Counted from the whole stretch's first letter, positions 25,318-53,508 are shown. The stretch is 63,242 nucleotides of DNA, filler included, from 22 parts of 22 records of this genome joined end to end with filler, not necessarily neighbours in it, one strand, 5' to 3'. Program-made: numbers and translations. Notes: generated from the letters alone by a model not told the origin.

Positions 25318-25506
25318 GGGGGAGGGCGATCGTACCAGTTCGATGGTTCTCGGCCAAAGCGACCGTTCGTATCATCTACCCAGGGTCCCTTTCGAGAAGG
25401 CACCTGCCGAAAGTGCGGCGAGTTCGGCCACTGGGTGCGAGATAACAAGTGCCGCATGCAATCGGGACAAGGCCCAAGCAGCACCAAGTGGGTGCACAGA
25501 CAATAA
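25318..25506 (+). mobile_element. DIRS/PAT-like gag C-terminus with a CCHC-like knuckle
   Basis: Manual translation GGRSYQFDGSRPKRPFVSSTQGPFREGTCRKCGEFGHWVRDNKC...HRQ*; overlaps the RT ORF, which is in the +1 frame. Confidence 0.8.
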
Positions 25507-27487
25507 AGTGTTTAAAGATAAGTATGATTCTTTATACGCTGATATATTTCGAGATTATGAGTATACCGATTCAGATGGCCCTCATGTAGTTGGCACGTTA
25601 AAGAAACATTTGAGTTTTTGGAAAAATTGTTTAGGTGCAAACTCAATGATTTTAGATTCATTGGAAAATGGGTACAAAATTCCATTCGATTCTATGCCGC
25701 AAAGAATGCACAAGAATAACAATAGATCGGCTTTAAACAATGGTGAATTCGTGACTGAAGCTATTTTGAGCCTTGAAAAAAGTGGCTTAATTTCCAGGTG
25801 CATTAATACGATTCCCAAGTGTGTAAACCCATTGTCAGTTGCTGATCAATCACATTCCAAGAAACGCCTTATACTTGATTTGCATTTAGTAAACAAACAC
25901 GTACAAAACCGGTCTGTTAAATATGAAGACATGAGGACTATGCTATTGTATCTGAAAAGGCATGGGTTTATGTACGGCTTTGACATAAAAGCAGCCTATC
26001 ATCACATTAATATATTTCATGAGCACAGGACTTATCTGGGCTTTGCATGGCCCTTTGAAGGCGTCATGACATATTTTGTATTCAATGTTTTGCCGTTTGG
26101 TCTTTCAGTAGCTCCTTATCTATGGGTTAAGGTGACACGGCCACTAGTTAAGAAGTGGAGAAGTGAAAGCAAGAATATTGTCTTATTTCTCGATGACGGA
26201 TTGGGGTGTTCATATAATTTCGAGACGGCTCAGTTACATAGCTCTGAGGTTAGAGCTGACCTTCTAAATGCTGGTTTTGTTATAAATGAAGACAAGAGTG
26301 AGTGGTTTCCCACTCAACGGAAAACTTGGATTGGGTACGACATTGACCTTTGTTCAGGGAGGTTCTCGATTCCTCAAGTAAGAGTAGCAAAAATCAAAGC
26401 GGACATAGAATCGGTTCTTAGCAATGAGGCGCACATGCATCATGTTAAATTCATTGCAAAAATTGTGGGTCAGATAATGTCCATGTCATTAGTTATGGGA
26501 AACGTTTGTCAGATTATGACAAAATCACTTTCATGTTGTATTGCTGAAGCTTCTTCGTGGAACAGTTATCTGTACCTTACTCCGCAAGCTATAATTCAGT
26601 TGCATTATTGGCTTCGCCACATTCAGGACCATCAGAGTTCAGATCTATTTTTCAAAGCATCGTGTGACCAGATTGTTTACAGTGATGCTAGTGAAACAGG
26701 GTGCGGAGCATACACTGTTAGTATGGGCAGTATGATTTTCCATAGTGAGTTTTCAGACACGGAAATCGGGACTAGCTCTACCTATCGAGAACTCAAGGCA
26801 GTGTTCTATGCTTTAGAAGCTTGGAAAAGCAAAATGCAATATAAGCGAATAAAGTGGTTAACTGATAACAAAAATGTAGAGATTATTATTCTGAAAGGGA
26901 GCATGAAGCCTTACTTACAAGATGTAGCATTTGAAATTTTTACATTGTGCATGGTGAACAATATTGTTATCGAACCGGAATGGATACCTCGGGCAGAGAA
27001 TGATGTGGCAGATTATTTGTCACGCATTGTTGACCTAGATGACTGGGGTGTCACTGACACGGTATTCACGTTTTTGAATAATGCGTGGGGCCCATACACT
27101 GTTGATAGATTTGCGAGGGCGCACAACACAAAATGTGCGAGATTCAATTCCCGGTTTTGGGAACCCTGCACGGAAGGTGTAGACACTTTTGCTATTAATT
27201 GGCATGGGGAAAATAACTGGGTCGTCCCTCCGCCGCATTTAATTAGTAGAACACTAATGCACATGAAAAACTGTAAAGCACAAGGAACTTTGGCTGTCCC
27301 GTTATGGAGAAGTGCGCCTTTCTGGCCTTTGGTGTGGGTTCATGGATCATGGGCATCCGAAATTACAGACTATGTTGATTTGCCATCTAGCAAACAATTT
27401 TACATCCCCTGTAAGTCAAGAAGGGGCCTCTTTGGTTTACAAGACCTGCCATTTAGAATGCTAGCAATTCGAGTATGCTTTGGTTAG
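25343..27487 (+). mobile_element. Tyrosine-recombinase retrotransposon (DIRS/PAT-like) RT + RNase H + Dam-like methyltransferase domain
   Basis: KKRLILDL, DIKAAYHHI, LPFGLSVAP, FLDDG; RNase H SDAS/RELKA/TDN/N.VADYLSR; MT-like VDRFA..N.K, WVVPP, VP.WRSAPFWP. Confidence 0.92.
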
Positions 27488-27782
27488 GCTTAGGCCTCGT
27501 TCGTTTTGAGCGGTGCATCTATTTTACAGGCCTACGTGTACACCTGCAACAATTTTACATTCCTATTCTTCAAAGCAATGCATAGGATTGTATCATACTT
27601 TTGTAAACTGCTAGTTCACAGGATACGGCACATACTTTATTATTCCATTCAGAATAGAAATTATTTCCATTATTATTGTAACNNNNNNNNNNNNNNNNNN
27701 NNNNNNNNNNNNNNNNNNNNNNNNNNTTAATTAATTAANNNNNNNNNNNNNNNNNNNNNNNNNNNNNNNNNNNNNNNNNNNN

Positions 27783-29108
27783 GCGAACAATTACGAGCGC
27801 TTGCTGGATGTGGCGCAACAACTGTCGACGCCTACGGACATGAACACAGAGACAGAGACTATAGCTTCAGAGGATGTTGTGGGCGAGTCGATACGCCTAT
27901 CACAAAGGTGTAGCAAGCGGCCAAGCAGTATCGCAGCTGCTAAGGCAACCAAAAAGCCGCGCAAACAGTCAGTCGGGACTACCATGCCAAACCGCCAGTC
28001 GCCAGCAAGTGCTCAAGTGGTATCGTCTGGGCATGAGGCACAGGATGTGTCGGCAGTGTCCGAACTAACTCTGTTGGCAAAATCGCTCCAAGAGTCAGCA
28101 ACAGCATTGACAGTGCTAATGGGGGCAGTATTGTCCGGCAGAGTATCTTCCCCACCAGACGTGACAGTGGATGAAGACATGAACTATATCGAGCCGGACC
28201 CGATCGCACAGGAGCGGAGCGCAGAAGAAGTGATACAAAAAGAGTTAGAGGGTGAAGGAATACGGATACTGCAAGAAGAGGCAGGAGAATTAACCGGTGT
28301 CGGACTAGCCGCAGGTACTTACAAAACCATGGCTCAAGGCAATATGTATGCTCATGTATCCCAAAAAGTTAAGGCAAAAATACTTAGCAATGAGTTTGTT
28401 AATCTGTTCGAACTGTTGCCCAGGGACAAAGGACTGGGGGAGGAAGAAAATGAGGAGAAGCAATTGATTTTCAAATGGGTAAAGGGGCAACAAACCTTAG
28501 CTTTGGGTTCAAACAGTAACTACAAGGGTAAAATCATGGGAATTGGGCAATGGACTACTGCATTCAACGTATACATGTCCATATACCTGGGAAAGTTTCC
28601 GGCGGAAACTCAAGGGCTATTGAAATACTTGGGCCGCATTAGACAAATGCAAGATTCATTTAGAGGCACAGCATGGCTACAGTATGATAGCGATTTTCGC
28701 AAACTGCGAGCGGAAGATGTGGAGGGAAACCCATGGGGAGGGGTAAACCTAGAACTATGGGCCTTTGCCATGAGCAAAGCGGAGGTGGGAATATCTAGGC
28801 CCAAGAGCTATGGTACGCGTAATATGTTCGATCTGAAATCTGACGTGGGGCGCCCTTTTCGGGGCCAGGGACATATTGCAAACAGGTTCCAGAGGGGCGT
28901 ATGTTACCAATTCGCCGAAAAAGGGTCCTGTGCGTATGGGCAACAGTGTCGATTTCGCCATGAGAGGGGACAAATGGCGAGACAAGCCACATTCGATAAC
29001 AAACATTCCCACACTCAGTCACGATCTGATACCAGTAACCCCAATAAGACCAACACAGGTAGAGTCGAGAAACATATTGCCAACCCCAATCAAAATAAGC
29101 AAGCTTAA
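27783..29108 (+). mobile_element. Ngaro/DIRS-like gag with CCCH finger
   Basis: EFVNLFELLP, WTTAFNVY, WLQYDSDFR, PWGGVNLELW, CYQFAEKGSCAYGQQCRFRH. Confidence 0.85.
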
Positions 29109-30066
29109 TGAATATTTATCAGGCTACAGCCCACAGCGAAAGGATGACTTGATCAGAAACTTAACATTTGGCTTTCGAGTGCATTATGAGGGCACACATA
29201 AAGGCATGCGAGCACGCAACTTGAAGTCTGCTTTTGACCATCCACACATGTTATCGAGCAAAATCAATAACGAAATCAGTTTAGGTAGAATAGCGGGTCC
29301 ATTTAACACACCCCCATTTGAGCCATTTGTTATTAGCCCCACGGGGTTGGTTGAAAAACAAACACTGGGGGAATACAGACGTATACACCACCTCTCATAT
29401 CCAGAGGGGGGAGATTCAGTAAATAGCCGAATTGATGAAAAATTTTGTCGCGTCTCGTATGCATCAATCGATGATGCCACATATGAAATCCAGAGACAGG
29501 GGAAAGGGGCACAGCTAGCGAAAACGGATATTAAATCAGCTTTTCGCTTGTTACCTATTCATCCGGATGACTACTACCTCTTAGGTTTCTCTCATCACGG
29601 CCAGATGTTCTATGATCGAGTCATGCCTATGGGCCTCAGCGCAGCCTGTCAGGCTTTCGAAAGCCTTAGTACTGCAGTCGAGTGGATTGCTAAAACTAAA
29701 AGGGGCATTAGCTCTGTAATACATGTCTTAGATGATTTCTTGATAATCGGACCACAACAAGCAAGCATATGCCAGATACAGTTGCGTGCGTTGTTAAATT
29801 TATTTGACGACTTGGGAATTCCTGTAGCACAGGAAAAAACTATGGGTCCCGACACTACGTTGGTCTTCTTGGGAATAGAACTGGATACTGTAGAAATGGA
29901 AGCCAGATTACCACTTGATAAACTGGTGAAATGTAGAAATGCAATCAAAGAGCTGCTAAATGTCAAGAGAACGACGTTAATTGAACTGCAGTCAACTGTG
30001 GGCCTATTAAATTTTTGCTGCAAAGTTGTGGTACCTGGCAGGACCTTCTTGCGACGCATGTATGAC
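28837..30066 (+). mobile_element. Ngaro-like reverse transcriptase (3'-truncated), +1 frame overlapping gag
   Basis: LPTPIK, GRIAGPF, IHHLSYP, AKTDIKSAFR, PMG, HVLDDF, FLGIELD. Frame opens after TGA at 28834-28836. Confidence 0.92.
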
Positions 30067-30359
30067 NNNNNNNNNNNNNNNNNNNNNNNNNNNNNNNNNN
30101 NNNNNNNNNNTTAATTAATTAANNNNNNNNNNNNNNNNNNNNNNNNNNNNNNNNNNNNNNNNNNNNCAACATGTTGGCACAAGATGATTCTGCTGAACGA
30201 TGCAAGTTAAATTTCTATTTTCCTAATTTATGCTAGTATGGTAAATATTATTATATAGGCCTAGGCCTATGGAATTTCGTATTTCTTTATCATTGATGGA
30301 AGTAGTCACATTACAGCATAAACCTATTTACATATCTATATACATGTATAGTTATCCAG

Positions 30360-33300
30360 CTACATGTGTGCATCTAGTACCATCAGATCCCCATTTTTCA
30401 AATCTCTTAGAAGAGGAAAGTGCCATGTCGTGTCTTCTTCATCGTCATCGTATCGCACTTCATATTCTGTCGCAATTGGGTTATTTACATTAGGTCCACT
30501 AATAGATACTACAGTGCCTTCAAACCAATCCACGTTGGAGTCTTTGTCATTTTCTTCTGCATAACATCTGTGCTTAATTTTCAGACCAATCAGATTAGTT
30601 GGATCCTTCTCGTACACAGCTAACTTTGCCTTTTCTTTCACCAAAACACGCTTTTCACGAGCCAAAAATAATTTCGCTGTCAAAAGCTTCTTCTGTGCCT
30701 GAAGTCCTACAGTTGCACTGTCGTTGGTAGCTGATTTCTTTGTATTAGTTGCCTCAACTGGTGCCATGGGATTTGTCCGAATTATTGTTTTCAAATTTTC
30801 TTTTAACTTCTCAACACTGAACTGCACTCGCTTCTTATCCTTTGTGCATGACTGTACAAATAGTTCTCGTGGACCCTTAGCAAACAGAACTTTTCTGTAA
30901 TATTGGATCTGATTCATTATGGTACCCCGCCCCGCGCTTCTTTATCGGAAAGATTTATCCTATCAACTTCTTCCTCTTTCGTGATTACCTTTCCAAACTC
31001 GGCTAACTTATTAGTGATATTCACTTTTAGTTCTTTCGCTTTGAGCTCAGTTTTCCTTTTGTCCTCCTGTTTTCGCATGAGAATTTGGTGACGCTGCTCT
31101 TTTATTTGTTTAGCACGGTCGCGAAATCGATCTTGCGCATTGTAAAATTCTCTTCGGGCCTCTGACATTACTTTTTCTTTTTCTGATTCACCTTTCTCTT
31201 GCAGCCACTGGCTAGTCTTATTGTTCATCCACATAATTAATGTGGATTGTGCCAACATTGTAGCAGCAGGTTTGATGCGCACAAGCAAATCTAAGATGGC
31301 AAAATCACGTTCAGATACCATGTTTGTTGTGGGTACCGCTTTAGATGCATCCAAAAGAAAATTGTCTGGATTACTGTATTTGCCACCAGGTAGTTGATCT
31401 TCACACTGCCTCTCTAAAATAAGAAGCAGGCCGTGGCAAAGCATTTCTAGACATTGCTGTGTCAGAGCATTAAAGTCTTCCTCTTGAGGCGCAAACAGAG
31501 CTTCATATAATTCATCTTTATGAATGTCAACATCTGCTTCAGAAAAAACAGGTTCAGCATTGAGCAGAGGAGCGGCATCACTACACAAATTCTCCAAAGC
31601 TAACTTCATCTGTAAAAGATGCTTGTTAAGTGACAAAATGTTTTCTGCTTTCTCCACAATACGCCAGTAGGGTCCAGTAATAAGTTTATCGATGATTCCC
31701 AAGGAGCGTACACCAACAACATGTGGCATGTGAGATAAATCTTCTTTTACTGCCAGTAGTAAATTGTTTGGATTTGGCCAGGTAGAAAGAAATTTTGTCA
31801 TATCATCCTTATGATAGAAAATTGCAGCTCCGTTGTAAAACATAATGTTTATGCGCTGACCGTGCACATCTGGAAGCAGTAACTTTTTATCCGTCATTTC
31901 CAAAAACGTCTCAAAATAGTGGGATACACCTGCCTCATCACTTCCGCGAGGGTGAAATGCCTTGGCAGCTGTACGCAGTAAGCGGCATGTTCCTGATTCG
32001 CTCGAAGCAAAAGCGTGCTCCGATTGGGCTTTGCCGACCACATCTTCGAACAATTTTAAGACCGAGTCACATTCGGACGCCATATTAACAAGTACGTGCA
32101 TTTTGCAATAAAAATTTCCCATGTGTGCCAACTGTGCCTGTGTATTTGGTGAAAGGATGTTCCAATTTGGTATGACTTGTGGTAAAAGCTCCTTTCGAAA
32201 CTCTTCTAGATTTCGATTGAAGACCGGCATCGTGGAACCCTGGTCGGACATTGTGTTTTTAATTGACAAAACTAATTCAGCAACAGACGTTTCATTTTTT
32301 GTAATTTTCGATAAGTCGGTAACTAAGTCCTTGAAGTCTGATGTGATCGTTTCCGAATCTTGTCCGCCGAGCTCTCCCATCCCCATGCTCAGTTGCTTTC
32401 CGGAACTTAGTGTTACCTGCCATCCTTGGTAATGTTTGTGAAATTTAGTGGTTGCGTCTCCGTGCACAGTGTGTCCTTCCGATGTTAACATTTCTTGTGC
32501 TACTTGCACTTTGGCTATATGGGATGCTTCAACTAGTAAGCGTGACTTTACTGCATTACTTGGCAGACGATTAACCGATATGCCTGCCAAATTTTTCAAC
32601 ACTGTTTTTATAACACTGTTTACATGGTTCATGCTCACGTTCATTGATAGCAGGGACATAATCGTTTCTCGTACCTCATCATTGTAGCGTCCGTTTTCGA
32701 ACGTCTGAATTTCGGCTTTTTCCATTAGCGCATTTACAGACTGCAAATGTGTTATCTCGGCATGCAAGTCTTTTATTTCTGTTTTTAGCGAAGCAACTTC
32801 GTCTTCATACAAACTGTCTACTTCGGTGCTTTTTATTTTTCTGCTCTTCAGGTACAATATTTTCTTTCCGAGTGCTTTTTTGCTCGCTCTGTGTTCTCTC
32901 AAAGAGGATTCCAATTTTTCATGTTCCGCTCTTAAAGTACCTACTTGCTCCTCAACCTTTTTTAATGTGTTGCTTTCCTCTTTCAAGCCATCAATCTCAC
33001 TTCTTTGTTGCTTTATTTTTGATTCCTTTCTCTTAAGCTTTTTATTTAGGTTGCGGACATTTTTTGATGACGACTGTGCACACTTTTCCTGCATCTTAAA
33101 TAGTTTGTCGGTGCATTCTTTATAACTACTGTTCAGTTTGTCAAGTTCACTCTGCAACATTGCTTTTGATTCTCTATCTTGCGCTATTTTCTCTATCAAA
33201 GCATCTGTTTTCGTGTTCAGCGAGTTCATTAGCTCTATTTGAGAATTGTATTTGGTCTCCCAATCATCCGATAGTTCAAATTGTTTTGCAATGTCTCGCT

Positions 33301-33646
33301 GAAGTTTTTTATTTTCGCGTTTCATTTCACCAATTACAGCTTTCAGTTTACGTTTACGCGGTGTTAGTGAATCAACATTCCTCTGGGCACAAGGATCTGT
33401 CGCCATGTAATTCTGCAGCACATCCAATTTCTTTTTCGATGCAGAGCCTTTTTTCAAAGAAGTTATTTTGTCGTAAATGTACTTGAGTTTTTTGTATAAC
33501 ACAGAATTATCTAGGTTTTTGAACATTTCCGGCACACAATCAATTTTGCGAACCGCACTACCCACAGAGTTCATTGTACGTTCTGTTGCAGGTATAGATA
33601 TCCACACATGATACAGGAGCTCGTTGCAGAACTTGTTTTCCTCCAT
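30360..33646 (-). pseudogene. hAT-related (DDE, CxxH) transposase with N-terminal coiled coil and C-terminal Spindlin/Tudor-like domain; split by a 5-bp duplication at 30925-30934
   Basis: HGDATTK (D), TMSDQ (D), FYCKMH, TTNMVSERDF (E). Removing one CCCCG copy joins the 909-aa and 185-aa ORFs (..EARGTIMNQIQ..). Confidence 0.7.
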
Positions 33647-34009
33647 ATTTATCGTTGTCTAGTTATGTTGAAATGGTCCATGACTAGGCCTATTATCTGA
33701 AGTGCAAAAAAACAAAAAGAAAGAAATTAAAACCCATTAGTAGGCTAGGTGCAATATATACCAAAAAGAAAACCCAATAAAATTTGCTAGTTTAGGGAAT
33801 CGTTCCGAAAATCATGATGATATGAAAAACCAACAACGTACACCAATCCATTTCCGNNNNNNNNNNNNNNNNNNNNNNNNNNNNNNNNNNNNNNNNNNNN
33901 TTAATTAATTAANNNNNNNNNNNNNNNNNNNNNNNNNNNNNNNNNNNNNNNNNNNNTCAGAGACCAACAGTTGAATCTTGTTTTTAATAATTTTAATTTT
34001 TTATTTTAG

Positions 34010-36069
34010 ATTATACACCAAAACACTTAGCATCATTGACGTCAACATGCAACCAACACTGTAGAAACTTTCAGTTGGAGCGCTTCACAACGAATATTCA
34101 ACTAAAAATACATCGGTTCAAGGATAGCTGTTACAAAACATTTTTTGAAATGGAGATAGACAATGAAGGTTGCCTAAGAGACATCATGAATAAACTCGTT
34201 AAGGGTAAACGTGGATACTACCCCTTGGAAGATAATTCACACCTAAATGACGTACTGCATGATGGTTGGGACCGTTGCGTTGTCAACGACGATGACGTCA
34301 ACCATGTCGTCAATGGATCCCTGAAAATTCGCTTTCGAAAAAAGGGATCTTTTGTCATCGGCAAGTGTTCGTTTTTTCGAGAAAAGTCGAAATCTGCTCA
34401 ATAGACTGTAGGCATAATGCCTTATGCTGATGTTAAACTGAAACATTTTTTGCAGTACTCTGTTAATGATGTTGTTCGTTTCACGGAATTGGAAAATGGC
34501 GTAACATTAAATCCAACTAATGACGAACTCGAGCATCTACGTGGTCGCGGCCGTGGGTTCGTAAGTAAACATAACAGAACTTATAGGCAATTAAGTAAAA
34601 AGAAGCGTGAGGCACTACTACAATCAGTGTATAAATGGCAATTATCTGAAGCAAATTTTGTTTGTCTCAGATTGAAGAACAGGGAATTGCGACGCGAAAA
34701 TGATCAGTTAAAACAGCGAGTGCTTGGGTTAAAAAATGCAAGTAATGCAAGGAAATCACGGCAGGACTTTCGTGATCTTACATCGTCTAACGCCAGGAAA
34801 CAAAGGAGGAAAAAAGCTGGTATTCCATCACCAAAAAAACTCACGCCGCGTAAAGCTTTAAAGAGTAAAGATTTAAAGCAAATATCTGACAGACAGTGGA
34901 AAGTGTTATCCAATACTGCACCGGGTAATGTAATTCCATCTTTACGCACGGTGCAGCGTGTGAGTAAAAAGTTAAACAGACTATCTTCCCAGCATATTAG
35001 TGTACATCAAAATTATGCTGTACGCTCCGATGTGAAAGAGGCAGTTGTAGAATGCCTTAATTATGCATCACCCGATAATGAAACAGTATTTTTGAAGCTA
35101 TCAGGAGATGGCACTTTCCCGGGCAGACAAAAAAGTGACGGTGTTATAAACATCTGTATTGAACTTATTAAGCCTTGTATAGAAGTTAGGAAAGTTGTTT
35201 CGATTGCTATTGTCCGTGGCTCCGAAAACGAAGGAACGTTGAAAAACATCATGAGCAAAATTGATACTGAAATCGGTGATATAAAGCGTAATGGTATTCC
35301 TGGTTTGGAACGCCCATTCAGACTCTTCCTTGGAGCAGACTATAAGTTTCTCCTCCTTGTTCTTGGATTAAGTGCCGCAACCAGTACCTACGCGTGCATC
35401 TACTGTGATGTTTCTAAAGATGAACGGTGGTCAAAAGCAGGCAGGCCACGAACTGTTGAAGATCTTGTAAACAATGCATCAAAGTTACGCAAGCAGCGTT
35501 GTTCCACAAAAGATGTTCTAAGCCAAAAGCACGTGCCACTTCTCACAAACATCCCTATAAGTGACATAGTGTGTGACGAGATGCACTTAATCCTTCGTGT
35601 CTTTGACAAATTATGGGATGTCGTTACTCCAAAATTAAAGCTGAGCGGTGAATATGACAAACTATGTCGTGCTGTAAACACAATATTAAAGCGGAACGTT
35701 AATGTAGGAAGTGATGACTTGCTCCGAAGCACGGAGTTGAGTATGAATGAAAGGGTCAAACTGCTACGTTGCTTACCGGGCAATGACTTCTTCCCAGAAA
35801 ACCAAATATTTAATTGTGGTAAACAATTCATAGAGATTATTGAGCACATTGATGTAGTGCACAATACATGTGCCTCTGTAGAAACCATTGTATCTTATAC
35901 AAAAGATAGTACTTGGAATTTTATTCATAACTTAGTTAAATACATACCTAGAGCTGCTGTGACACCATATTTACACATATTTTGGTACCATTGGCACAAA
36001 ATTGTTCGGCGCACTGAAGGGTACATTCATGACTTTAATCAACAGCTGGTTGAACAAAGCAACATTGCA
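34010..36069 (+). mobile_element. RAG1/Transib-like DDE transposase (3'-truncated); the upstream 34036-34404 segment is in the same frame behind one TAG
   Basis: KLSGDG (D), LGADYKFL (D), CIYC, DEMH, TPYLHIFWYH, QQLVE (E), in the same order as the RAG1 core motifs. Splice acceptor ttttttattttag at ~33997-34009. Confidence 0.7.
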
Positions 36070-43731: not shown

Positions 43732-43817
43732 AACACTACAGTGCAATTACACCAAGCAACATTTTAATAAATAGAACACTACAGTTCAATTACACCAAGC
43801 AGCATTTTAATAAATAG
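43732..43817. repeat. 43-bp tandem duplication (2 copies, 2 mismatches)
   Basis: aacactacagt(g/t)caattacaccaagca(a/g)cattttaataaatag twice. Confidence 0.9.
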
Positions 43818-44614: not shown

Positions 44615-44707
44615 TTAGGTACTTGATTGTTAGTAAACAAAGGGGAGAAGATCCCATAAACTTCCATAGTTATTAATATTGGTGCAACCAATCACGCACA
44701 CTGCATA

Positions 44708-46031
44708 ATGACGCAGCCTGGAATACAACTCGATATGAAGCATTTTAGCACTGGTACGTCGGAACAGTGGGCAGCATGGACCGAACAATTTGAACTGGCA
44801 GCCAAGGTATCAAAATACACCGAAAACCCGAGGAACTAATGCCATTCTATTTGGATGGCACAGCTTTTGAGGCTTTTAAAAGTTTATCGGATGACGATAA
44901 AAGGAAATTGGATGACATCAAAGCTGCAGTGGAAAGGCTATGCACCACTGGCGAAACCGAGTTCATGATGGCACAACGGTTTCGATCTATCAGTAGAGGG
45001 CCTGAGGAATCCATCGCACAATGGGAAATGCGGGTCGCTAAAATGGTAAAAAAGGTGTTGACAGCGGGTCTCGAAGAAGCAGAAAAGCAAAAGACGCTAG
45101 TCCATACATTTACTGCCGGGATCCAAGATGTCAACCTACAAAAGTTATTGTTGAAGGAAGCTCCCACTACCATGAGGGCCGCCGCTGACCTAGTTATTAG
45201 AGAACATAACATTTGTAAATTCACGACTCGAACCTCAACGCTCATTAATACCCAAAATGAACCCCGGACTAGGCCGTTGCAAGCCGTCCGCCAGGACATA
45301 ATGCGACCAGTCGATATGACTGCAATGGACAAAGCTACCATGGACCAAATGGCTACTTTGTTAGCCAATAAAATGGCAGAGCCTGACCGAGTTCAGACAT
45401 GGCCACCGAGATGGCCTACGAGAGATAATCGAGATCGGCCAAGGCCCAATGAGCCAAGTAGGCCAACGCCTAACAGTGACCAACACGACAAACAGGACCG
45501 CTATTGCACATTCTGTAAGCGCTCCACTCACTGGACACGTGACTGTTGGACGCATCCGGGGGCCACTGCCAGACCACCACAAGGAAGGAGGGATGCCAGA
45601 CCGACGTCCCGGGACCGTGGGGATCACCCCAGGTCGACATCCCCGGAGGGTAAGGCACCACGCCGCAGATTACTATGTCAACGCTGCAGATGCGCGCGAC
45701 ACGAAGCTAAGGATTGCTTGGCAGACTGGGACAGCCTAAATAGGTGCAAATGGTGCCGGCACTCCAACTCTGAATGTATTTGCAAAAATCGCAAAGACGA
45801 CATGCCGACACAGGAAAAGTCCAAGTCGGAAAAAGTCGACCCGCAGGATTCACGGGCAGAAAACCTGCGGGAATAAAACAACCAGCCCACTCCACAACCA
45901 CTCAACCTCCCGACAAAAACAACAATTATCATACACCAAAGCCAATGTGAGAGGATGAAGTAGTCCCATATGTGGTAGGGGAGTTCCCAGTCATGAAGTT
46001 ACCCATTTTAATAGACAGTGGGTGTGAGCTG
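44708..46031 (+). pseudogene. Degenerate Ty3/gypsy-like gag (frameshift near 44830) with two CCHC knuckles, followed by the start of the aspartic protease
   Basis: MTQPG..F..W.EQFELAA (44708) continues in another frame as MPFYLDG.A; CTFCKRSTHWTRDC and CQRCRCARHEAKDC; PILIDSGCEL at the contig end, in the -1 frame with an upstream TGA. Confidence 0.75.
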
Positions 46032-46131
46032 NNNNNNNNNNNNNNNNNNNNNNNNNNNNNNNNNNNNNNNNNNNNTTAATTAATTAANNNNNNNNNNNNN
46101 NNNNNNNNNNNNNNNNNNNNNNNNNNNNNNN

Positions 46132-46352
46132 TTAAAGCGGCCAAACAGCTGGCAACACAGAGGGCAAAGATCTTCATTAAACCCGATCAAACTTTGAGCG
46201 AACGTAAAGAATCAAGTCGCCTGTCGAAAAAGATGAAGGAACTACGCATTCAACACCAAAATGACGGTGTCCGTGTCTACATCAAAGGACAAAAACTGTT
46301 TGTGAACGACAATGTTGTCGATCAAGCCAAAACTGATAACCAGGTTTTTTAG
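46132..46352 (+). mobile_element. LINE ORF1 C-terminus
   Basis: Manual translation ..KIFIKPDQTLSER..IKGQKLFVNDNVVDQAKTDNQVF*, a typical ORF1 CTD, immediately before APE-RT. Confidence 0.8.
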
Positions 46353-46387
46353 ACACTCAGCTGAATTGCAAAACTGTAGATATTAAA

Positions 46388-48477
46388 ATGATGTTCTGGA
46401 ACATTAATGGACGCATGCATATATTTGACTCCAAACATAACATTTCTGTTTATCAGCAATGGATTGAGGAAAACAATTATGATATAGTATGTTTTAGTGA
46501 AACCCACATGTATAAGAAACAGTCGTTTGTCATACCGGGGTTTATTGAATATAGCCATGCTTACTCTGAGCATACAACACAACATCCACGTGGTGGAGTC
46601 TCTGTGTATGTTAGCCATAGGGTTTATGACAATTTGGTGTCCGTGGAGTTCCCTTGTGATGACTGTATATTGTGTTGCTTCCAGTTCGACAAACGCATAT
46701 ACATTGGCTCAATGTATGTTCCACCACGGGATTCCGTATATTTCGATGAAGGCATTTTCACAAAAATGGCTAATATCATGCAGGAATACAAACAATATCC
46801 GTTCATCCTAGGCGGCGACTTGAACTCACGAGTGGGCAACAACCCTGCTTCATCTCGATTGCCTGTTGGGATTACGTACACACCCAATCCTGACAACGTC
46901 GTTAATAGACATGGGGAAGAGCTCGTTCGAGTTTGCTCTGCAAACAAATGTTATATCTTAAATCACATGTGCTACAACGCTAAATCCTTTATAGGGGATT
47001 TTACATATCACCGTGGCAATCTTAAGTCACAAGTCGATGTTGTCTTTGCTAATAAATCGGCGCTGGAACTCGTCACTAATCACTGTGTACTACCCGTGGG
47101 ATGGAATCCGTCCGATCATCTACCGTTAGAAACTCAAATTAAGGTTGTCCAGCGTGATCCATTAAAGTGTGCTTATCACTCGATTCTTGATGTGAACACT
47201 GAGTACTATTTGAATAAACGAAGGCCAGCAAAAATAAGAAATGCTAATGTCAACTGGACTGTATATAACACGTTAATTGACGGGAAATGTGCACAGTTAA
47301 GAAATAAGCTACAAATTCTAACTGAACCATATCTCATGAGTGACATTGACAATATTGTTACCGATTTGTCGACATCTCTCTACCAGGCTGCCCGTAGTAG
47401 CGAGAAACGAAACAGCAATAGGCAGACGTGTGTTGTTGAAAATACAGAAAATTTACGAAATATGCAACGTTCAGTGCGAGATTTATGGACTGATGCTGAT
47501 CAGAAATTTTCAGCTTTTATGATCGAAAGCAGTGATGAAAATAGACTCTTATGGGAAGAAAGTCGCCGTGCAGCGCTAGTTGAAACGGATAAGTTACATG
47601 AAACCTCAGTGTCAGATAAATGGCAGCAAATAATTAACGCGGATGATCATAAAAACTTATGGCAGTCAATAAATTGGAAAGGAGCGATCTCTTGCAATGT
47701 GACTGATAACAAAAATGAATCGCCACCTGCTCACGTTATGGCTGCTCATTTTCAACAGAAATGTTCTTTAGAGTCTGATGAAACACTGGATGATATAATG
47801 GATGGTTATAACATGAACGTGCCTGTTTTGGACGACCCTATACAAGCCGAGGAAATACGGCAGGCCACTGAGAAACTGAAAGATGGGAAGGCATCGCAGG
47901 ATGGTTGGTCATCAGGAATGATAAAGTTCGGTTTGCATTCGATATTGCCTGTGCTATTGATGCTGTTGAATATTATATTTATAACAGCTCAGTATCCGCG
48001 GAGCTGGTGTATCTCATTCATAAAGGCACTTTATAAGAAGGGAGACCACAATGAACCGAGGAATTATCGAGGGATATCACTTGTCCCACTCCTAGCGAAG
48101 TTGTATGATTTTATTCTGACAACACGTTTTATGCTGTGGTTTTGCCCTGCTGAAGAACAGTCGGCTTTTCAGGCAAAACGTAGCTGTGCGGAACATGTTC
48201 TGTTACTAAGAATCCTGATGCAGTTAGCGAGAAAACAAAAACAAACGCTTTTCCTCATCTACCTTGATTTCGAAGGTGCTTTTGACAGGGTATCACGTCG
48301 CATAATGTTTAATAAGCTAAAGCTTATGGGAATAGGAGCTGTTTTTCTCAGTGCTCTACTGTCTCTGTATATGCTAACAGAAAATATTGTGTATGTAAAC
48401 AGTGATTCATCAGGCACATTCTGTACATTAGCTGGTATACGACAGGGTGCGCCAAGTTCACCACTTCTATTTCTGGC
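46388..48477 (+). mobile_element. LINE ORF2 (APE + RT), 3'-truncated; -1 frame relative to ORF1
   Basis: FWNING, FSETH, GDLNSR, VD, SDH; NYRGISL, QSAF, LDFEGAFD, GIRQGAPSSP. Confidence 0.95.
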
Positions 48478-48577
48478 NNNNNNNNNNNNNNNNNNNNNNN
48501 NNNNNNNNNNNNNNNNNNNNNTTAATTAATTAANNNNNNNNNNNNNNNNNNNNNNNNNNNNNNNNNNNNNNNNNNNN

Positions 48578-50007
48578 CTAACTGTACATGCAGTTTCCTC
48601 CATCAGCTCCGAAGATACGTTTGACTGTGGCTGGGTCATGATCACTGCCAATGAATGGGTGGTGTTTTTGCCATTGACTGATGAACCCTCTAGATCAAAA
48701 TTGTCCATCATGAACTGGATTAATCCATCATGGGCATCTGACACACCATGAAGTGAGGCAGTGTAGGAAGCAGCCACAGCTACGGATTTCCTAAATCTTC
48801 TAAACTCTTCATATGTAGAAGTAACTCCAAATGAATGAAAACAATTCAAAAGTTCTTTTGATTCAAGTATCATAACGCTGAGGGCTAGCTGGAGGGGTGT
48901 TGTACAGTTCATCAATAAGGATGTAACAATGTTACCTATCATCAATGCTGGTAGTGTACTGTTTAGCTTGGGGGTGAGCCGACATAGAAGGTCTAACAAG
49001 GTAGAGCTGATTGCTTCAGTCGCCGTTTCCTGACTCAACCTGGGTTTATAACAACCTTTTTCTATTTCAATCTGATTAACCTCTTTCCGGATTGCTTTAG
49101 CAACTGTCTGTACAGAAATGCTAATATCATCACCACTGTCATCATTTACAATTCTCAGTGTAGAAGATGCTTTGTCCCTGAAAACAATTAGACTAGCTAC
49201 CCCTGGGGATGACAACACAATTACATCATTACCAAAATATTCAATGACCTTGCTTACAACAGATTTTTTACATAAGTCATTTCCACCTCTTGCTATATAC
49301 CTACTGTACACATCATTAGTGTTCCAAATTAAGGAACGACCTTCACTCATTAGAGAAGTCACAGTTTTTACTACAGAGTCACCTTCATTTGATGAACTGC
49401 CACTTGCTGCACTTATGGATTTAGATGAGGAAAAAGTTGCTCGACAATTTGCATGGTAACGCGCATCTGCAGCATGAAGATCTGCAGTTGCACCACTCAC
49501 ACGTATTCTAACAAGATTTGCCTGTTCATCATTTCTTAGGTCACAGATATCTAACACAGATTGTTTAATTGTCTTTGTTGATCCTCTCTTCTCAATCTCC
49601 CTGAACTGATATGCTGGGATCCATCGTTCTGGATGCTTTGGATCCTTATTAACATTGCATTCCATTCCACAATAAAGACAGTTTTCTCGGAAATTAAATT
49701 TTGGACCACCTGATTGTCTTAGTCTTTTCTTTGGGTTAGGATTTTCATCTGGTTTTGATCCCATACTTTTACTTGCAGCAGCCGCCATGGTCTTCTTAGA
49801 ACAGTATGTAGAAGCACATGCATGGCGTGCAAACACGAAAGGGTCGTCACTGCTGTCTAACAATGTCTGAAGTTCATTCTCTTTTCCATCTTTACAGACT
49901 CTGCTGGCTGCAAGCATACTTATGATTCTTTCACGACCACTTCTGCTCAAGGGGCCCTTCTTGCAAGCATTTCTGAAAGCCAGGAAACATTCGGATTCCT
50001 CTGCCAT
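48578..50007 (-). mobile_element. Academ transposon protein, N-terminal part (3'-truncated); likely start ATG at 50007 after a splice acceptor
   Basis: H..C..Y, CLYC, DLHAADARYHANCR, TPLQLAL, GVTSTYEE, MDNFD..G..TTHSLA, paralleling the other Academ proteins here. Acceptor tttatctgtttgcag just upstream. Confidence 0.72.
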
Positions 50008-50799
50008 TGTGGTTTCTGCAAACAGATAAATAAGTAATGGGTGCCCGCATGTTTTAATTAGCCCAAGTTTTGTTTGTTCTGCGTTTTTCTGAATGGATAC
50101 AGACATTGTTCTATTATAAAATAATTACCGCTCCCTACCAACATGATGCAGTGATGTAAGTACCTATTATTATATTATTGTATTGCATAGGCCTATGCTA
50201 TCCTGGTTGCAAACTTCCTGGGAGCTGGAAGCCGGAGTCCACTCCAGCAAAAAAAAACTTTTAGTCAGGGGTGTACATTAAACTACATTTGTGTTTTTTG
50301 TCTACACTCCGGCCCAATAGAATTACATCACTCGCGGCCAGAAGTGTATTTTTCACTAAAAGTTGGCATAAAAATTATTAACGAGCCGGGGTATTCGGAT
50401 TCGAAGTATTATCTTTGCATAGGAACAGGGGCAAAGGTCTACAAAAACTGAATCCGCTCATCTCTAACTTAATCTATTACAGTCCGTCTAATGAAGAATT
50501 ATGGTAACCCGGAATGACAGAGCGTTTATTTTAGGCCAATGCATCTTGTAACTGATTCTCTAGTATATTTTGCCGCCGTAACATAATTTCATGATGAAAA
50601 AGTCTCACTATTTTGTTTTGTTTTCTAAAGTTCGCAGTTACTATGAGTTGTAGGCCTAAGTGTATATTATAGTGGGTGTCACTTACATAGGCCTATGTTN
50701 NNNNNNNNNNNNNNNNNNNNNNNNNNNNNNNNNNNNNNNNNNNTTAATTAATTAANNNNNNNNNNNNNNNNNNNNNNNNNNNNNNNNNNNNNNNNNNNN

Positions 50800-52786
50800 C
50801 TTGAGCGGGAAAAACAAGTATGCTAGAGTGTATTCCCCAGAAATACTAACTACGTGTTTTATTTGGCACATGTACTCTCCAAACCTTTATGAAATATTGC
50901 GGACTGTGTTTGTATTACCGTCAACACGCCTTCTGCGAAAGTATTCTGCGGGGATTAATGTTGATGATGTTAGTGACAGCATTTTGAAATATCTTGCTTT
51001 AAGAACACAGAATTTGACAGTCTACGAAAGAAACTGTTTGTTAATAATAGACGAGATATACGTTACAAAAAAATTGGAATATTCTGCTGGAAAAATTTAT
51101 GGTTTGGCAGATGATAGTGACAACGCTGCAAAAACCGTTGTGTCATTTTTAATACAATCGGTAGCCAGTTCTTATAGGGATATGGTTTCCTTATACCCAG
51201 TAGTGACGCTAAATACCAGACTACTCTATGAGTACACGATTAAGGTGTTGACACTATTAAAACACAGCTCTGTGAACGTTTGTGTGGTAGGAACTAGTGT
51301 AGACAATCACGCTGTTAACCGTGCTTTGTACGTCAAATTAAGTGGACAAGACGCTATAAAAGCTTGTGTGCCTAACCCAGTTTCTCCTGAAGAACCAATT
51401 TTTCTACTGTTCGATGCAGTCCACAATGTAAAGAACGTTTATAATAACTTTCAGAAGAAAAAAGTATTCAACTATCCTTCATTTGATGGACATTCTACAT
51501 CTCAGGATATTGACTGTGTTGCAAACTTTTATCACGTTGTAAGTCTTCAGGAAATTGAAGAAAACAATGCAGCCAAGTTGGCGCCAAAACTAACGAAAAG
51601 GGTTCTTAACCCAGGCAACCTTGAAAGAACAAACACGAAATTATCACTAGCTGTGTTCAGTGAAAGTACCCGAAATGCACTGGAGTATTATAATAAACCA
51701 GGCTACCAAGAAACTGCAAACTTTTTGTCCATAATTTTAAAGTCATGGAACATTATGAATGTGAAAACGCCCGATAAAGGAATACACAAAAAGAATCCAG
51801 ATATGGAACCTGTTACACGCATAAATGATTCAAAACTGATTTGGCTAGAGAAATTTGTGCAATTCTTAATATGCTGGAGAAATCTATTCCCAGCCAAAGG
51901 TCTGACAAAGGAAACCTTCGTGGCTGTGATCCAAACTTGCTCGGCCTTACCCCAGTTAGCCAGGTACCTTCTGACAAAATGTGGTTTCAAATATGTTTTG
52001 TTAGGAAAACTACAAAGTGATCCAATTGAAAGGCGCTTCAGTTGGTATCGCCAACTGTCTGGAGCAAACTACCTAATCTCAGTTCAGCAACTGCTCCATG
52101 GAGAGAAAAAAATACGTATACTGTCGCTTTTAAAGCACACTGGGCTAAATGTTCAGAGTCTCCAGAAAATGGTAGCACTTCAGTCAGAATCCCTGGAGCG
52201 TGGGTGTGACAAAGTACAGGAAGACACATTATGTGAATCTATAGGTGATGAACTTGTAGATGCTAGTGAAATTACGTCAGAAGAAACTGAAGCAGTAAGG
52301 TTCATAGCTGGGTGTATTGCGAAAACAATATCAAATGAGAGGCACTGCGATGATTGCGTGAAAATTCTTAAGAGTAAAAACGCTGTCAAAATATTATCAG
52401 AGGACAATCAGGTGGAGCGTGATTTTGTGACCTTTGTTAGTCGCGGAGGCTTAACACAACCCAGTGAATATACTTTGTGGATTTGTTTAATTGGTTATAT
52501 TGTGTGGCAAAATATTAAGTCGAATCCAAAATTATTGAAAGTGTTCTTAACTGCGTCACATCACAAGTCGTTGTTTGTTGCTGTTGTTGCACGTGCCATA
52601 CAGAATGAACCGTTCATTGACGAGCTGTCGCAAACATCCTGTAGTTTTGGGCACACAAACACAGTTCGTATCCTTGGACATTTATTTAATTACTTTGGAA
52701 AGAATTTCACAAACAGTGCCGTTCGAGATACAGCAACGATGACGCAAATGAAAGCATCAAAACTACAGTCCAAAAAGCCCCAGTAA
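50800..52786 (+). mobile_element. P-element/THAP9-like transposase (5'-truncated), related to the 36170-38975 copy
   Basis: LIIDEIYV, SVDNH, FDAVHNVKNVYNN, LQSDPIERRFSWYRQLSG. Confidence 0.93.
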
Positions 52787-53104
52787 TTGGTAAGTATTTA
52801 AATTCTAAATTGGGATTTATTTTATTAATTATCAGAACATTTATTTTCCTGTATAGGTATTTATACATGTACAAAGTGATTTTATAGGAATATATTTACT
52901 ATTACGTTTAGCTGCGTGCCACTCCTATCGTGTTTACAACACTGTACAGTACAGTACACTCACAGTAGTATCCTCACTGCTGTAGACCAGCTGCGCGGCC
53001 TTCCNNNNNNNNNNNNNNNNNNNNNNNNNNNNNNNNNNNNNNNNNNNNTTAATTAATTAANNNNNNNNNNNNNNNNNNNNNNNNNNNNNNNNNNNNNNNN
53101 NNNN

Positions 53105-53508
53105 AGGGAAGGTGACACCGAGGGATACCCTTGGGACAAAGTCAATTCCGAGTTATGGACCTTTTCAATGGGGCAGGCAGAGTATAGTCTAAACAGGCAG
53201 TACAGAGGTGCAGGTGATAAGGGATACAGGCCATACCGGCCATCTCGGGGGCATTTGGAACCAGAGGCCGAGGGGGGAATTTTCGTGGCAGGTGGCAGCC
53301 TGGGCCATGTTTCCAATTTTCCAAGAGGGGGACATGCAGTTTTGGTGAACGATGTAGATTTCGACACGATCGGGCATACAATACACAGCCAACAAACAAT
53401 ACCAGCAGGCCAAGAACAGCACAAAATACCACCAATAGCACGAACCGTATCATGCCCACAACAGTTCCCAAATATGCAAACAACACCAATCAAGGTACCA
53501 GTAAGTAG
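53105..53508 (+). mobile_element. Ngaro-like gag C-terminus with CCCH finger; internal 1-nt frameshift between 53221 and 53280
   Basis: PWDKVNSELW is in the RT frame. GGNFRGRWQPGPCFQFSKRGTCSFGERCRFRH...SK* (TAG 53506-53508) is in the frame -1 to RT. Confidence 0.8.

Follow-up and report, generated by a model that had tools for sequence, protein, structure and literature searches.

A candidate UUU_CGN +1 frameshift site in the gag/reverse transcriptase overlap of tyrosine-recombinase retrotransposons

Retroelements with a tyrosine recombinase (YR) gene are plentiful in animals, molluscs and hemichordates among them, and the translation of their overlapping ORFs has been a question left open. 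In the parts available to us, papers on YR elements note merely that the ORFs overlap (PMC3266345, PMC6681497, PMC9210276), and statements quoted in PMC13003380 suggest that the YR ORF involves frameshifts, which they leave unspecified. We examined a window of 63,242 nt (the whole stretch of DNA analysed), which consists of 22 short contigs separated by spacers of the form N44-TTAATTAATTAA-N44 and which holds three retrotransposons, all of them broken copies, on contigs 8, 9 and 19. The original prediction was that these elements share a UUU_CGN signal at which ribosomes slip from gag into the reverse transcriptase (RT) frame. Its coordinates for five TTT_CGN sites agree with the sequence, and translation together with Pfam matches to RVT_1 confirmed that RT lies in the +1 frame relative to the zinc-finger (gag) frame in all three contigs. 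Every one of the five sites is in the finger frame, and from each the RT frame stays open into RVT_1. All features described here are on the + strand.

Contig 9 holds a gag ORF of 441 codons (27783..29105), identified by translation and clipped at its 5' end by the contig, which has weak Pfam matches to zf-CCCH and terminates at stops in 29106-29111. The RT ORF (28837..30066, clipped at its 3' end by the contig) is in the +1 frame and is preceded by a last RT-frame stop, a TGA at 28834..28836, which sets the start of a gag/RT overlap of 272 nt. In the gag frame, CCT_TTT_CGG (28854..28862) lies 20 nt into this overlap and 13 codons ahead of a CCCH finger (CYQFAEKGSCAYGQQCRFRH, 28902..28961), and a second hexamer, TTT_CGC (28953-28958), lies inside the finger. 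The conserved RT N-terminal motif PTPIK (29080-29094) overlaps the final gag codons. We regard CCT_TTT_CGG as the best candidate shift site of the window. The prediction that the motif sits near the overlap start applies to contig 9; in contigs 8 and 19 no RT-frame stop lies between the contig's 5' end and RT, so that the start is undefined there and could be checked in contig 9 only.

In contig 19 (53105-55291) a single open frame of 709 codons (53105..55231) runs from a homologue of upstream gag through RT/RNase H. The homologue, detected by protein alignment (53105..53254), reads REGDTEGYPWDKVN...RPYRPSRGH and shares its frame with RT. The CCCH finger (53308-53367) belongs to a different ORF of 95 codons (53221..53505, between stops at 53215-53220 and 53506) that includes AAT_TTT_CGT (53278-53286) and, within the finger, TTT_CGA (53359-53364) with AGA directly before it. 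Because upstream gag is in the RT frame and the finger frame is stopped at 53215-53220, gag must be frame-broken within 53255-53289, a segment that adjoins AAT_TTT_CGT. The conserved RT start LPTPIKVD is located at 53654-53677, and a second, duplicated copy of this motif at 53480-53500. Protein alignment pairs RPFRG of contig 9 with RPYRP of contig 19, coded TAC_CGG, and the first sites of the two contigs may therefore occupy non-homologous positions. The second, in-finger TTT_CGN is present in contigs 9 and 19 as predicted but is not conserved, since relatives read CR[FY][KTVQSRA]H at this position.

DIRS1-like elements have inverted terminal repeats and an internal complementary region, and PAT-like elements have split direct repeats. 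Contig 8 (25318-27682) is DIRS/PAT-like. Translation gives a 62-codon 3' fragment of gag, clipped by the contig end (25318..25503; stop at 25504-25506), with a candidate +1 shift site, CCC_TTT_CGA (25387..25395), three codons ahead of a CCHC-like zinc knuckle in the gag frame (CRKCGEFGHWVRDNKC, 25405..25452). Read in the RT frame, this site encodes P-F-E. The ORF in the +1 frame (25319..27484), 5'-open to the contig end, encodes RT, RNase H and a putative Dam-like methyltransferase (Pfam RVT_1, 5.3e-16; RT_RNaseH, 5e-05; Dam, E = 1.1e-05 at 25.6 bits, which is under the cut-off of 28.1). Several homologues have a precomputed match to PF05869, and one (P0198) bears the source name 'Tyr recombinase domain-containing'. 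The contig finishes 198 nt past the stop of this ORF.

Contigs 9 and 19 have RT/RNase H without a methyltransferase domain, as is typical of Ngaro-like elements. The contig 19 ORF matches RVT_1 alone up to its stop, and among the matches listed at least 120 homologues have RVT_1, some with RT_RNaseH as well and none with Dam. No YR ORF falls inside contigs 9 and 19, which are truncated. In a related locus, L013, the ORF after RT/RNase H, a candidate YR ORF, overlaps it in the -1 frame and has weak, below-cut-off matches to Phage_int_SAM_1 (7.7e-4) and Phage_integrase (1.8e-3). Split direct repeats (A1...B1A2B2) were found in none of five related 8-10 kb loci; since the contigs may fall short of complete elements, we use 'Ngaro-like' with reference to domain content only.

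Are these sites three unrelated chance instances of a common 5-mer? TTTCG occurs 152 times in the window, counting both strands (shuffles, 129.5 +/- 12), which by arithmetic corresponds to about one in-frame occurrence per 2.4 kb; TTT makes up 60% of Phe codons and CGN 57% of Arg codons in the window's other long ORFs. This abundance favours coincidence, as does the lack of conservation of the two in-finger sites among the five. The window by itself is thus suggestive, without decisive force, and because chance could not be excluded from it alone, 80 related Ngaro-like metagenome loci were fetched. These gave 69 junction sequences, which formed 45 clusters at 90% identity. Cluster representatives were termed intact where gag ran for 250 codons or more in a frame lying one base behind that of RT and stopped no more than 60 nt from the RT motif; 29 of 45 were intact, with RT +1 to gag in 29/29, this offset being part of the definition.

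Gag ends 14-29 nt past the start of the RT 'TP[IV]' motif in most of the 29 representatives, so the frame change must occur upstream of TP[IV]. The overlap is typically about 250-300 nt, and the RT-frame ORF starts after a Leu-rich ELWL motif. From the start of the RT ORF up to the TP motif an RT-frame ATG is absent from 10/29 representatives and is not conserved in position among the rest; in L046 an RT-frame TAA stands two codons ahead of the site, and the stretch from that stop to the RT motif contains no ATG. Composition accounts for most of the long overlap. Recoding the gag protein synonymously predicts an open +1 frame over the last 80 codons in 15.6 of the 29 representatives, whereas 22 have one (p = 0.005); the stops number 9 where 18.2 are expected. 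The signal of dual coding is weak, gag third positions differing by 0.294 inside the overlap against 0.381 upstream of it, and RT second positions by 0.092 in RT proper.

Within these overlaps TTTCG heads the ranking of all 1024 in-frame gag 5-mers, being present in 23/29 representatives for the whole overlap (next best, 17) and in 11/29 for its first 10 codons (next best, 4). In 23/29 intact lineages the overlap has a TTT_CGN from which the RT frame is open, and the density of TTTCG per 100 codons is 1.12 from the overlap start to the TP motif and 0.27 in the gag body. Phe-Arg within 50 nt of the overlap start is spelled TTT_CGN in 13/13 cases. Enrichment of this dipeptide is confined to one orientation, with 33 FR in the overlaps against 13.4 in shuffles (maximum 24), and 18 RF against 13.8. 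Enrichment and top rank across 29 independent lineages, together with a one-orientation FR excess that recurs in two superfamilies (below), make coincidence very improbable.

Where the motif lies varies. It is found upstream of the gag zinc fingers, or just after them in some relatives, and shifts among lineages, always within the open RT frame; some half of the representatives have their first site >40 nt beyond the overlap start, and distances from overlap start to site match random placement. A pre-finger F-R occurs in 8/12 selected CCCH-type gags, as TTT_CGN in all eight. In one subgroup conservation extends to the nucleotide level: TGT_AAT_TTT_CGT is identical across 8 clusters and TGC_ACY_TTT_CGT is found in 2 others, although the synonymous sites beside the block vary and gag third positions differ by 0.57-0.62 between lineages with this type of block. 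CGT is used at every conserved-block site, despite accounting for 21% of Arg codons. In L060 and contig 19 AAT_TTT_CGT_GGC also precedes the finger, at non-homologous places.

Such a pattern might instead reflect the protein. Phe-Arg could be a conserved gag feature, an aromatic-basic pair that leads into the zinc fingers or out of them and for which TTT_CGN is the usual spelling, with RT made otherwise, for example through another shift site in the overlap, non-AUG initiation or re-initiation. The original argument from codon choice holds for all five window sites and yet is weak, because control FR outside the overlap, chiefly a conserved E[QN]FR motif, is also mainly TTT_CGN (22/32, against 27/33 within it), and the spelling does not discriminate. 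In gag outside the overlap TTT is 73% of Phe and CGN 66% of Arg, and CGN is no rarity either in these elements or in the other ORFs of the window. Also in keeping with a protein feature, the pre-finger F is retained without R in L058 (F-Q), L051 (F-L), L042 (F-S) and L074 (F-L), the RT-frame start behind ELWL has compositional reasons, and the overlap is without TTT_CGN in 6/29 intact lineages (L037, L040, L042, L044, L074 and L063, although L006-L009, sister copies of L063, carry it). Such a feature accounts poorly for a motif found at non-homologous places (after ELWL, before the CCCH finger, after the CCHC knuckle) and in two superfamilies with unrelated gag tails, or for an unchanged 12-nt block, always with CGT, where synonymous sites are near saturation; this block and the top-ranked 5-mer argue for conservation beyond protein and codon usage, against which stand the control FR and the six lineages. 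Nor do the lineages without an RT-frame ATG, the absence of other known shift motifs from the overlaps and the five fused or -1 relatives without the motif (below) fit it well. We therefore consider a protein feature with RT made by another route unlikely.

RT might alternatively be translated from altered RNA (a spliced or subgenomic form, or one on whose T run the polymerase slipped); another option is that the conserved block acts in cis in a different role. The TGTAATTTTCGT block is in principle compatible with a cis element of any sort, and gag runs into the RT frame in the copies of contig 19 and L011. However, many sites have three T's only (ACA_TTT, TCC_TTT, CCC_TTT), a run ill suited to polymerase slippage, L011 and L024 change frame away from the T run, and with the RT frame open throughout the overlap splicing is unnecessary. 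These alternatives appear improbable.

We therefore favour, as a rather likely reading, that the gag-frame UUU_CGN by the zinc fingers is a +1 programmed ribosomal frameshift site of the PA-X/amalgavirus type; its recurrence in dozens of related elements suggests that a slip there is probably how they make RT. Slippage, and how frequent it would be, we infer from sequence. When UUU is in the P site, paired with tRNA-Phe, and CGN occupies the A site, the tRNA would re-pair on UUC in a small fraction of ribosomes, which would continue in the RT frame, yielding a fusion of the N-terminal part of Gag with RT/RNase H, while the majority would complete gag. A site ahead of the fingers would produce a fusion without them; to lack these nucleic-acid-binding elements would be unusual and counts against the frameshift reading.

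The +1 frameshift site of PA-X in influenza A virus is reportedly the subject of work by Jagger in 2012. It is UCC_UUU_CGU (Firth 2012, PMC3498833), and the available text of PMC3498833 and PMC5052127 describes UUU_CGN as an experimentally shown +1 site in PA-X, used at about 0.7-1.3%, and as a predicted one in amalgaviruses, with all four CGN codons; of the two precedents first invoked, PA-X is thus experimental and the amalgavirus sites are predictions. As in PA-X, the retroelements have a zero-frame UUU_CGN with a +1 ORF that opens at or just ahead of it; downstream RNA structure is unneeded in PA-X, and none turned up in the present analysis. They differ in being DNA-integrated invertebrate retrotransposons rather than an RNA virus, in a putative Gag-RT fusion rather than an accessory protein, in the codon before UUU, which varies (AAU, ACN, UCC, CCN), and in that the frameshift is predicted from sequence. 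Amalgaviruses, in the text available, likewise have UUU_CGN (any N) in a long ORF1/ORF2 overlap (287-968 nt, against about 250-300 nt here) that links a capsid-like ORF1 with a polymerase ORF2, as deduced from comparative sequence data; they are RdRp-encoding dsRNA viruses, unlike a YR element with its reverse transcriptase, and in the retroelements the site shifts position within ORF1 between lineages. Ty1 (CUU_AGG_C) and Ty3 (GCG_AGU_U) also make Gag-Pol by a +1 shift at a slow A-site Arg or Ser codon, but with other heptamers, neither type of which occurs in any of the 29 overlaps, and at the extreme end of gag, in a short overlap. Poulter and Butler (2015), as quoted in PMC13003380, proposed a programmed frameshift for the Ngaro-like YR ORF; this is recoding of overlapping ORFs in the same element class, at the RT/RH-YR junction and in the -1 direction, and the quoted passage names no site. 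The literature that we searched contains no description of a UUU_CGN +1 frameshift for these elements, in line with the original prediction.

A defined six-base signal would make the translation question directly testable with reporters, and variation in nature (the four CGN codons, different codons ahead of UUU, positions before or after the fingers) would offer material for studies of UUU_CGN slipperiness. If the frameshift reading is correct, a PA-X/amalgavirus mechanism would reach from RNA viruses to retroelements, and annotation would improve, with a single Gag-RT product replacing an RT ORF with an arbitrary start.

The DIRS-like clade bears on how general such a route might be. FR lies no more than 60 residues upstream of the CCHC knuckle in 43/49 DIRS-like gag homologues, and is again enriched in one orientation (FR, 47 against 15.0 in shuffles; RF, 14 against 15.0). 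The pattern [FILPV]FV[PAT], which is TTT_CGT as read in the +1 frame, occurs in 18 of the 35 N-terminal extensions of the RT frame that are 80 aa or longer (shuffles: mean 0.7, maximum 4). The gag motif extends to FR[GPA][YF], which has the appearance of a motif at the protein level and to that extent favours a protein feature. TTT_CGN is absent from all five fused or -1 relatives examined: of those with gag and RT in one frame L082 has TTC_CGG and L097 no FR, and L083, L085 and L086 have a -1 arrangement. As a trait of all YR elements TTT_CGN was consequently rejected. The proposal that YR elements make Gag-RT by this slip thus draws on Ngaro-like enrichment, subgroup conservation and the DIRS-like FR and xFV[PA] patterns, against the six Ngaro-like lineages without the motif and the fused or -1 DIRS-like elements. 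That UUU_CGN is the general route to RT in large metazoan Ngaro-like and DIRS-like clades, as a movable module of the gag tail, falls a little short of an even chance in our estimation. The signal would have moved to a place behind ELWL, ahead of the CCCH finger or behind the CCHC knuckle, the Gag-RT fusion would keep its zinc fingers in some lineages and lose them in others, and the site would be the first of the PA-X type in a retrotransposon as well as in animal DNA genomes. Some relatives come near to the influenza site: L028-L030 carry TCC_TTT_CGT, identical to that of PA-X, and the DIRS-like L081 carries TCC_TTT_CGA upstream of its knuckle.

A UUU_CGN slip that joins gag to RT was the original prediction for three tyrosine-recombinase (YR) retroelements of the window. 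Comparative analysis lent this idea support from two superfamilies; the support is not conclusive, and controls weakened the case. We consider a PA-X/amalgavirus-type +1 ribosomal frameshift at UUU_CGN to be the best-supported reading and a probable one, and the recoding hypothesis for YR elements is both well motivated and directly testable.

The window (1-63242) consists of 22 short contigs of 2.0-7.7 kb, with N44-TTAATTAATTAA-N44 spacers between them, and most contigs carry long intron-free ORFs. Many hold mobile elements (LINE, Gypsy, Copia, BEL/Pao and a P-element/THAP9-like transposase), there are a few host-like ORFs (KH+PHD+CCCH, RING and PTB), and the whole has the look of an invertebrate transcriptome or of a very fragmented invertebrate assembly. 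The YR elements occupy contig 8 (25318-27682; RT, RNase H and a weak Dam-like domain, a DIRS/PAT-like content), contig 9 (27783-30066; gag with a CCCH finger, then RT) and contig 19 (53105-55291; RT/RNase H without a methyltransferase). Contigs 9 and 19 are called Ngaro-like on domain content only; the recombinase lies outside the window contigs, and no split direct repeats were found in five related loci examined. The closest database proteins are approximately 45-53% identical and, among the matches listed, the named ones come from bivalves, a hemichordate and amphioxus.

All five predicted TTT_CGN sites are present and in the zinc-finger frame, with RT in that frame +1 on each contig: CCC_TTT_CGA in contig 8 (25387-25395), CCT_TTT_CGG in contig 9 (28854-28862), AAT_TTT_CGT in contig 19 (53278-53286) and second sites inside the fingers of contigs 9 (TTT_CGC, 28953-28958) and 19 (TTT_CGA, 53359-53364). 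These in-finger sites are not kept in relatives, where the motif reads CR[FY]xH with x = K, T, V, Q, S, R or A. The placement of sites near the overlap start held for contig 9, whose RT-frame stop (28834-28836) lies 20 nt upstream of the site and whose gag stop is at 29106; the RT frames of contigs 8 and 19 run open as far as the 5' end of the contig, so that an overlap start is definable in contig 9 only. The contig 19 arrangement also proved irregular, since the finger frame is closed upstream by stops at 53215-53220 and the homologue of upstream gag (53105-53254) sits in the RT frame. The frame break falls within 53255-53289, a stretch with G and T runs that adjoins the site, and may be a mutation or an assembly error. 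In protein alignment, RPFRG of contig 9 pairs with RPYRP (TAC_CGG) of contig 19, so the pre-finger sites of these contigs are not clearly homologous. The original observation was thus confirmed in part. TTTCG occurs 152 times in the window against 129.5 +/- 12 in shuffles, and TTT and CGN are the commoner spellings in the other window ORFs (60% of Phe and 57% of Arg). Taken alone, the window data are compatible with chance as the source of the sites.

Relatives were therefore of interest at two levels, protein and DNA. A protein search with the contig 19 ORF scored 8000 candidates, of which 964 passed E <= 1e-10 and the best 120 were listed. Among these listed matches, many RT-frame N-terminal extensions, otherwise unconserved, contain [IL]FV[PA], which is the +1-frame reading of xxT_TTT_CGT_SCN; FV[PA] was present in 8/13 listed extensions that reach 80 aa, where shuffles give 0.6 (maximum 3). 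A first metagenome scan with a two-sequence alignment as query confirmed no relative. Scanning of metagenome contigs with a 36-sequence alignment (A3) produced 594 pattern matches, of which 423 were confirmed and the best 80 loci taken. The RT N-terminus was placed in 74 of 82 sequences, and the 69 with enough upstream DNA formed 45 clusters at 90% identity. Representatives were termed intact (n = 29) if the gag ORF had at least 250 codons, lay one base behind the RT frame and ended no more than 60 nt from the RT motif. The other 16 were left out of the counts because gag was cut by a contig end or degenerate; by our own reading of the listing, 11 of these also have an in-frame TTT_CGN in the overlap. 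Gag of the intact set mostly ends 14-29 nt past the start of the conserved RT 'TP[IV]' motif, so any frame change must be upstream of that motif. The gag/RT overlaps are typically approximately 270 nt, ranging from 25 to 155 codons and reaching at least 78 codons in 23/29.

The signal emerged from a test without prior choice of motif, covering all 1024 gag-frame 5-mers in the 29 intact representatives. TTTCG was the most widespread 5-mer both in the first 10 overlap codons (11/29; next best 4) and in the whole overlap (23/29; next best 17). From the overlap start to the TP motif, 23/29 representatives hold 27 TTT_CGN sites in total, and the density there, 1.12 per 100 codons, compares with 0.27 for the gag body. 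Where a Phe-Arg pair falls in the first 50 nt of an overlap, its spelling is TTT_CGN in all 13 cases. The dipeptide FR is itself enriched in overlaps (33 against 13.4 in shuffles, maximum 24) and RF is not (18 against 13.8). A coincidence of TTT_CGN sites, for all that the window data would allow it, is very improbable beside these counts.

The site does not occupy one homologous place across lineages and falls into three groups. In group 1 it follows an ELWL[KR] motif ahead of the fingers. In the CCCH group, to which contigs 9 and 19 belong, the site is 5-25 residues ahead of the finger; among 12 members picked out, 8 have a pre-finger F-R, always TTT_CGN, and the other four read TTT_CAA, TTC_CTA, TTT_TCG and TTT_CTT. 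In class B it stands directly after the last Cys of a CCHC knuckle, with TGT_AAT_TTT_CGT identical in 8 clusters and TGC_ACY_TTT_CGT in 2 more. Synonymous positions adjacent to the class-B block are variable, and the sequence 3' of it is unalignable. Divergence at gag third positions is 0.57-0.62 among such lineages, and only 21% of Arg codons are CGT. AAT_TTT_CGT_GGC also occurs pre-finger in one further relative (L060) and in contig 19. The degenerate copy L032 has TTT_TGT at its relatives' TTT_CGT position, approximately 40 nt before the RT TP motif, which fits a dead copy whose site has decayed at its CpG.

In 10/29 intact lineages the RT frame has no ATG from the start of its ORF to the TP motif, and ATG positions in the remaining intact lineages are not conserved. 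The overlaps of the 29 representatives contain no Ty1- or Ty3-type heptamers, and RNAalifold found no consensus structure 3' of class-B sites (0 pairs, 9 sites).

Several lines of argument lost force under controls. Choice of TTT/CGN over TTC/AGR, put forward as a stand-alone test, failed to discriminate, as 22/32 Phe-Arg pairs outside the overlap are TTT_CGN against 27/33 inside; most of the outside pairs come from E[QN]FR, a motif conserved 60-95 nt upstream of the overlap, and TTT_CGN is the usual spelling of Phe-Arg in these elements. Overlap length was rejected as a strong argument. The gag-body estimate (+1 stops at 4.3% of codons, and a length of 75 codons in only 2.6% of open runs) overstated the surprise, and a recoding control explains most of it: the +1 frame is open over the last 80 gag codons in 22/29, against 15.6 expected under random synonymous recoding (p = 0.005), with 9 stops observed against 18.2 expected. 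The gag tail is poor in Leu, Val, Ile and Met, and random recoding thus often leaves the +1 frame open. In seven independent pairs, substitutions at positions 1/2/3 were 0.207/0.148/0.294 in the overlap against 0.212/0.161/0.381 upstream. The overlap evolves mainly as gag, with a modest drop at gag-synonymous sites (approximately 3.9 standard errors, by our own calculation from the counts).

The expected clustering of RT-frame stops 5' of the site added no support, the median distance from the last stop to the first site being approximately 16 codons, by our own reading of the listings, against a background open-run median of 13; this distance is consistent with frameshifting but is no evidence for it. 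Individual stops do lie one codon before the site in L001, L005, L010 and L023 and two codons before in L046. Six of the 29 intact representatives (L037, L040, L042, L044, L074 and L063) have no TTT_CGN in the overlap. L063 has an extra RT-frame stop, and its sister copies L006-L009 do have TTT_CGN; L037 and L044 have TTT_CCN or TTT_CAC at corresponding places. Pre-shifted copies, or transcriptional slippage, were discarded as support because the frame changes in L011, L024 and L066 are not at the T run. In these three loci, indels elsewhere fuse or break the gag and RT frames.

For the DIRS-like clade, an RT search from contig 8 gave 372 proteins (best 120 listed). Among the matches listed, [FILPV]FV[PAT] is present in 18/35 N-terminal extensions that reach 80 aa, where shuffles give 0.7 (maximum 4), and other extensions read PFE or LFE, the counterpart of the TTT_CGA of contig 8. 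A zf-CCHC domain is part of several listed RT homologues of approximately 955 aa, and a Gag-RT polyprotein is thus a natural product in this group. Only seven DIRS-like DNA loci were found, all in metagenome-assembled genomes (MAGs) that evidently hold host-derived contigs. In L081, the closest locus, RT is in the gag +1 frame and TCC_TTT_CGA lies 22 codons ahead of the CCHC knuckle. L082 and L097 have gag and RT in one frame (the FR of L082 is TTC_CGG and L097 has none), and L083, L085 and L086 have RT in a -1 relation with no FR ahead of the knuckle. All three gag/RT relations thus occur, fused (L082, L097), -1 (L083, L085, L086) and +1 (L081, contig 8), and these relatives would lend themselves to a comparison of recoding signals. 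Searches of the MAGs that contain the DIRS-like loci yielded no further +1-type junctions with intact 5' parts.

Gag homologues of L081 with a CCHC knuckle have FR within 60 residues upstream in 43/49, with 47 FR against 15.0 in shuffles (maximum 28) and 14 RF against 15.0. The motif is often FR[GPA][YF], and a feature of the protein would account for this equally well. An FR motif at the level of the gag protein, with RT made by some other route, is a serious if less probable alternative to frameshifting. RNA-level routes to RT, or another cis function of the sequence, are unlikely explanations.

The animal-type DIRS-like contigs (L081-L087, L088-L109) occur in bacterial MAGs titled as Thiodiazotropha, Sansalvadorimonas, Poribacteria, Anaerolineae, Stappiaceae, Hyphomicrobiales and an unclassified Pseudomonadota bin, most simply through host contamination. 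Some of their proteins are deposited as bacterial, for example as 'DNA N-6-adenine-methyltransferase'. A scan of viral contigs found no DIRS-like RT.

Under the favoured +1 frameshift, tRNA-Phe would re-pair from UUU to UUC with CGN still waiting in the A site, after which translation would continue at a GNN codon of the RT frame. The predicted product consists of most of Gag, from its N-terminal side, joined to RT/RNase H by a linker of poor conservation, which would be the RT-frame reading of the gag tail. With the site before the fingers in contigs 8, 9 and 19, the fusion would lack fingers; in class-B relatives, with the site after the knuckle, it would keep them. Frames, motif and conservation are observed, and we infer slippage and its efficiency.

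Frameshifting at UUU_CGN is itself established. Influenza PA-X is made by a +1 frameshift of approximately 0.7-1.3% that needs only UCC_UUU_CGU (PMC3498833), and in amalgaviruses UUU_CGN, with any N, is placed within ORF1/ORF2 overlaps of 287-968 nt (PMC5052127). Relatives L028-L030 carry TCC_TTT_CGT, the influenza PA-X sequence, and the lack of a consensus RNA structure after class-B sites also resembles PA-X-type sites, which need none. Use of UUU_CGN by tyrosine-recombinase retrotransposons appears undescribed in the searchable literature, and an earlier remark on ORF1/ORF2 frameshifting may exist. Literature searches found nothing on ribosomal frameshifting in Ngaro, with none of the titles listed for Ngaro and frameshift concerning translation of these elements, and nothing on gag/RT frameshifting in DIRS. 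The passages retrieved on Ngaro and frameshifts concern mutational frameshifts or YR ORFs 'frameshifted' relative to RT; UUU_CGN papers, by their titles, treat amalgaviruses, other plant viruses and, in one case, ASXL genes. The accessible portion of the Atkins 2016 review does not mention DIRS, Ngaro or tyrosine recombinase. For a YR ORF in the -1 frame, Poulter and Butler 2015 proposed programmed frameshifts (as quoted in a passage of PMC13003380), and such a -1 overlap does appear in the Ngaro-like locus L013, where a putative tyrosine-recombinase ORF overlaps the RT/RNase H end by 163 nt (L013:4561-4723). L013 also has a GDSL/SGNH-like hydrolase ORF (783-1406) upstream of gag.

Further features of the window contigs were observed. 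The RT frame of contig 19 contains the conserved RT N-terminal motif twice, as TTPIKVPVSRPRGYLQTYNEH (53480-53540) and LPTPIKVDTLGAYLQGYNEH (53654-53720), the copies lying approximately 58 codons apart as an internal duplication directly after the gag tail. In contigs 9 (29080-29105) and 19 (53480-53505), the end of gag and the start of the conserved RT sequence both run through CCAATCAA, read as ..N-Q.. in the gag frame and as ..P-I-K.. in the RT frame; this dual use of approximately 25 nt is general among related loci. Finally, in a Gypsy-type element on contig 6 (15774-21781, minus strand), a 458-codon upstream ORF and a 1564-codon protease-RT-RNase H-integrase ORF share 58 nt. As calculated from the coordinates, their relation is -1, the usual retroviral arrangement, in contrast with the +1 of the YR elements.
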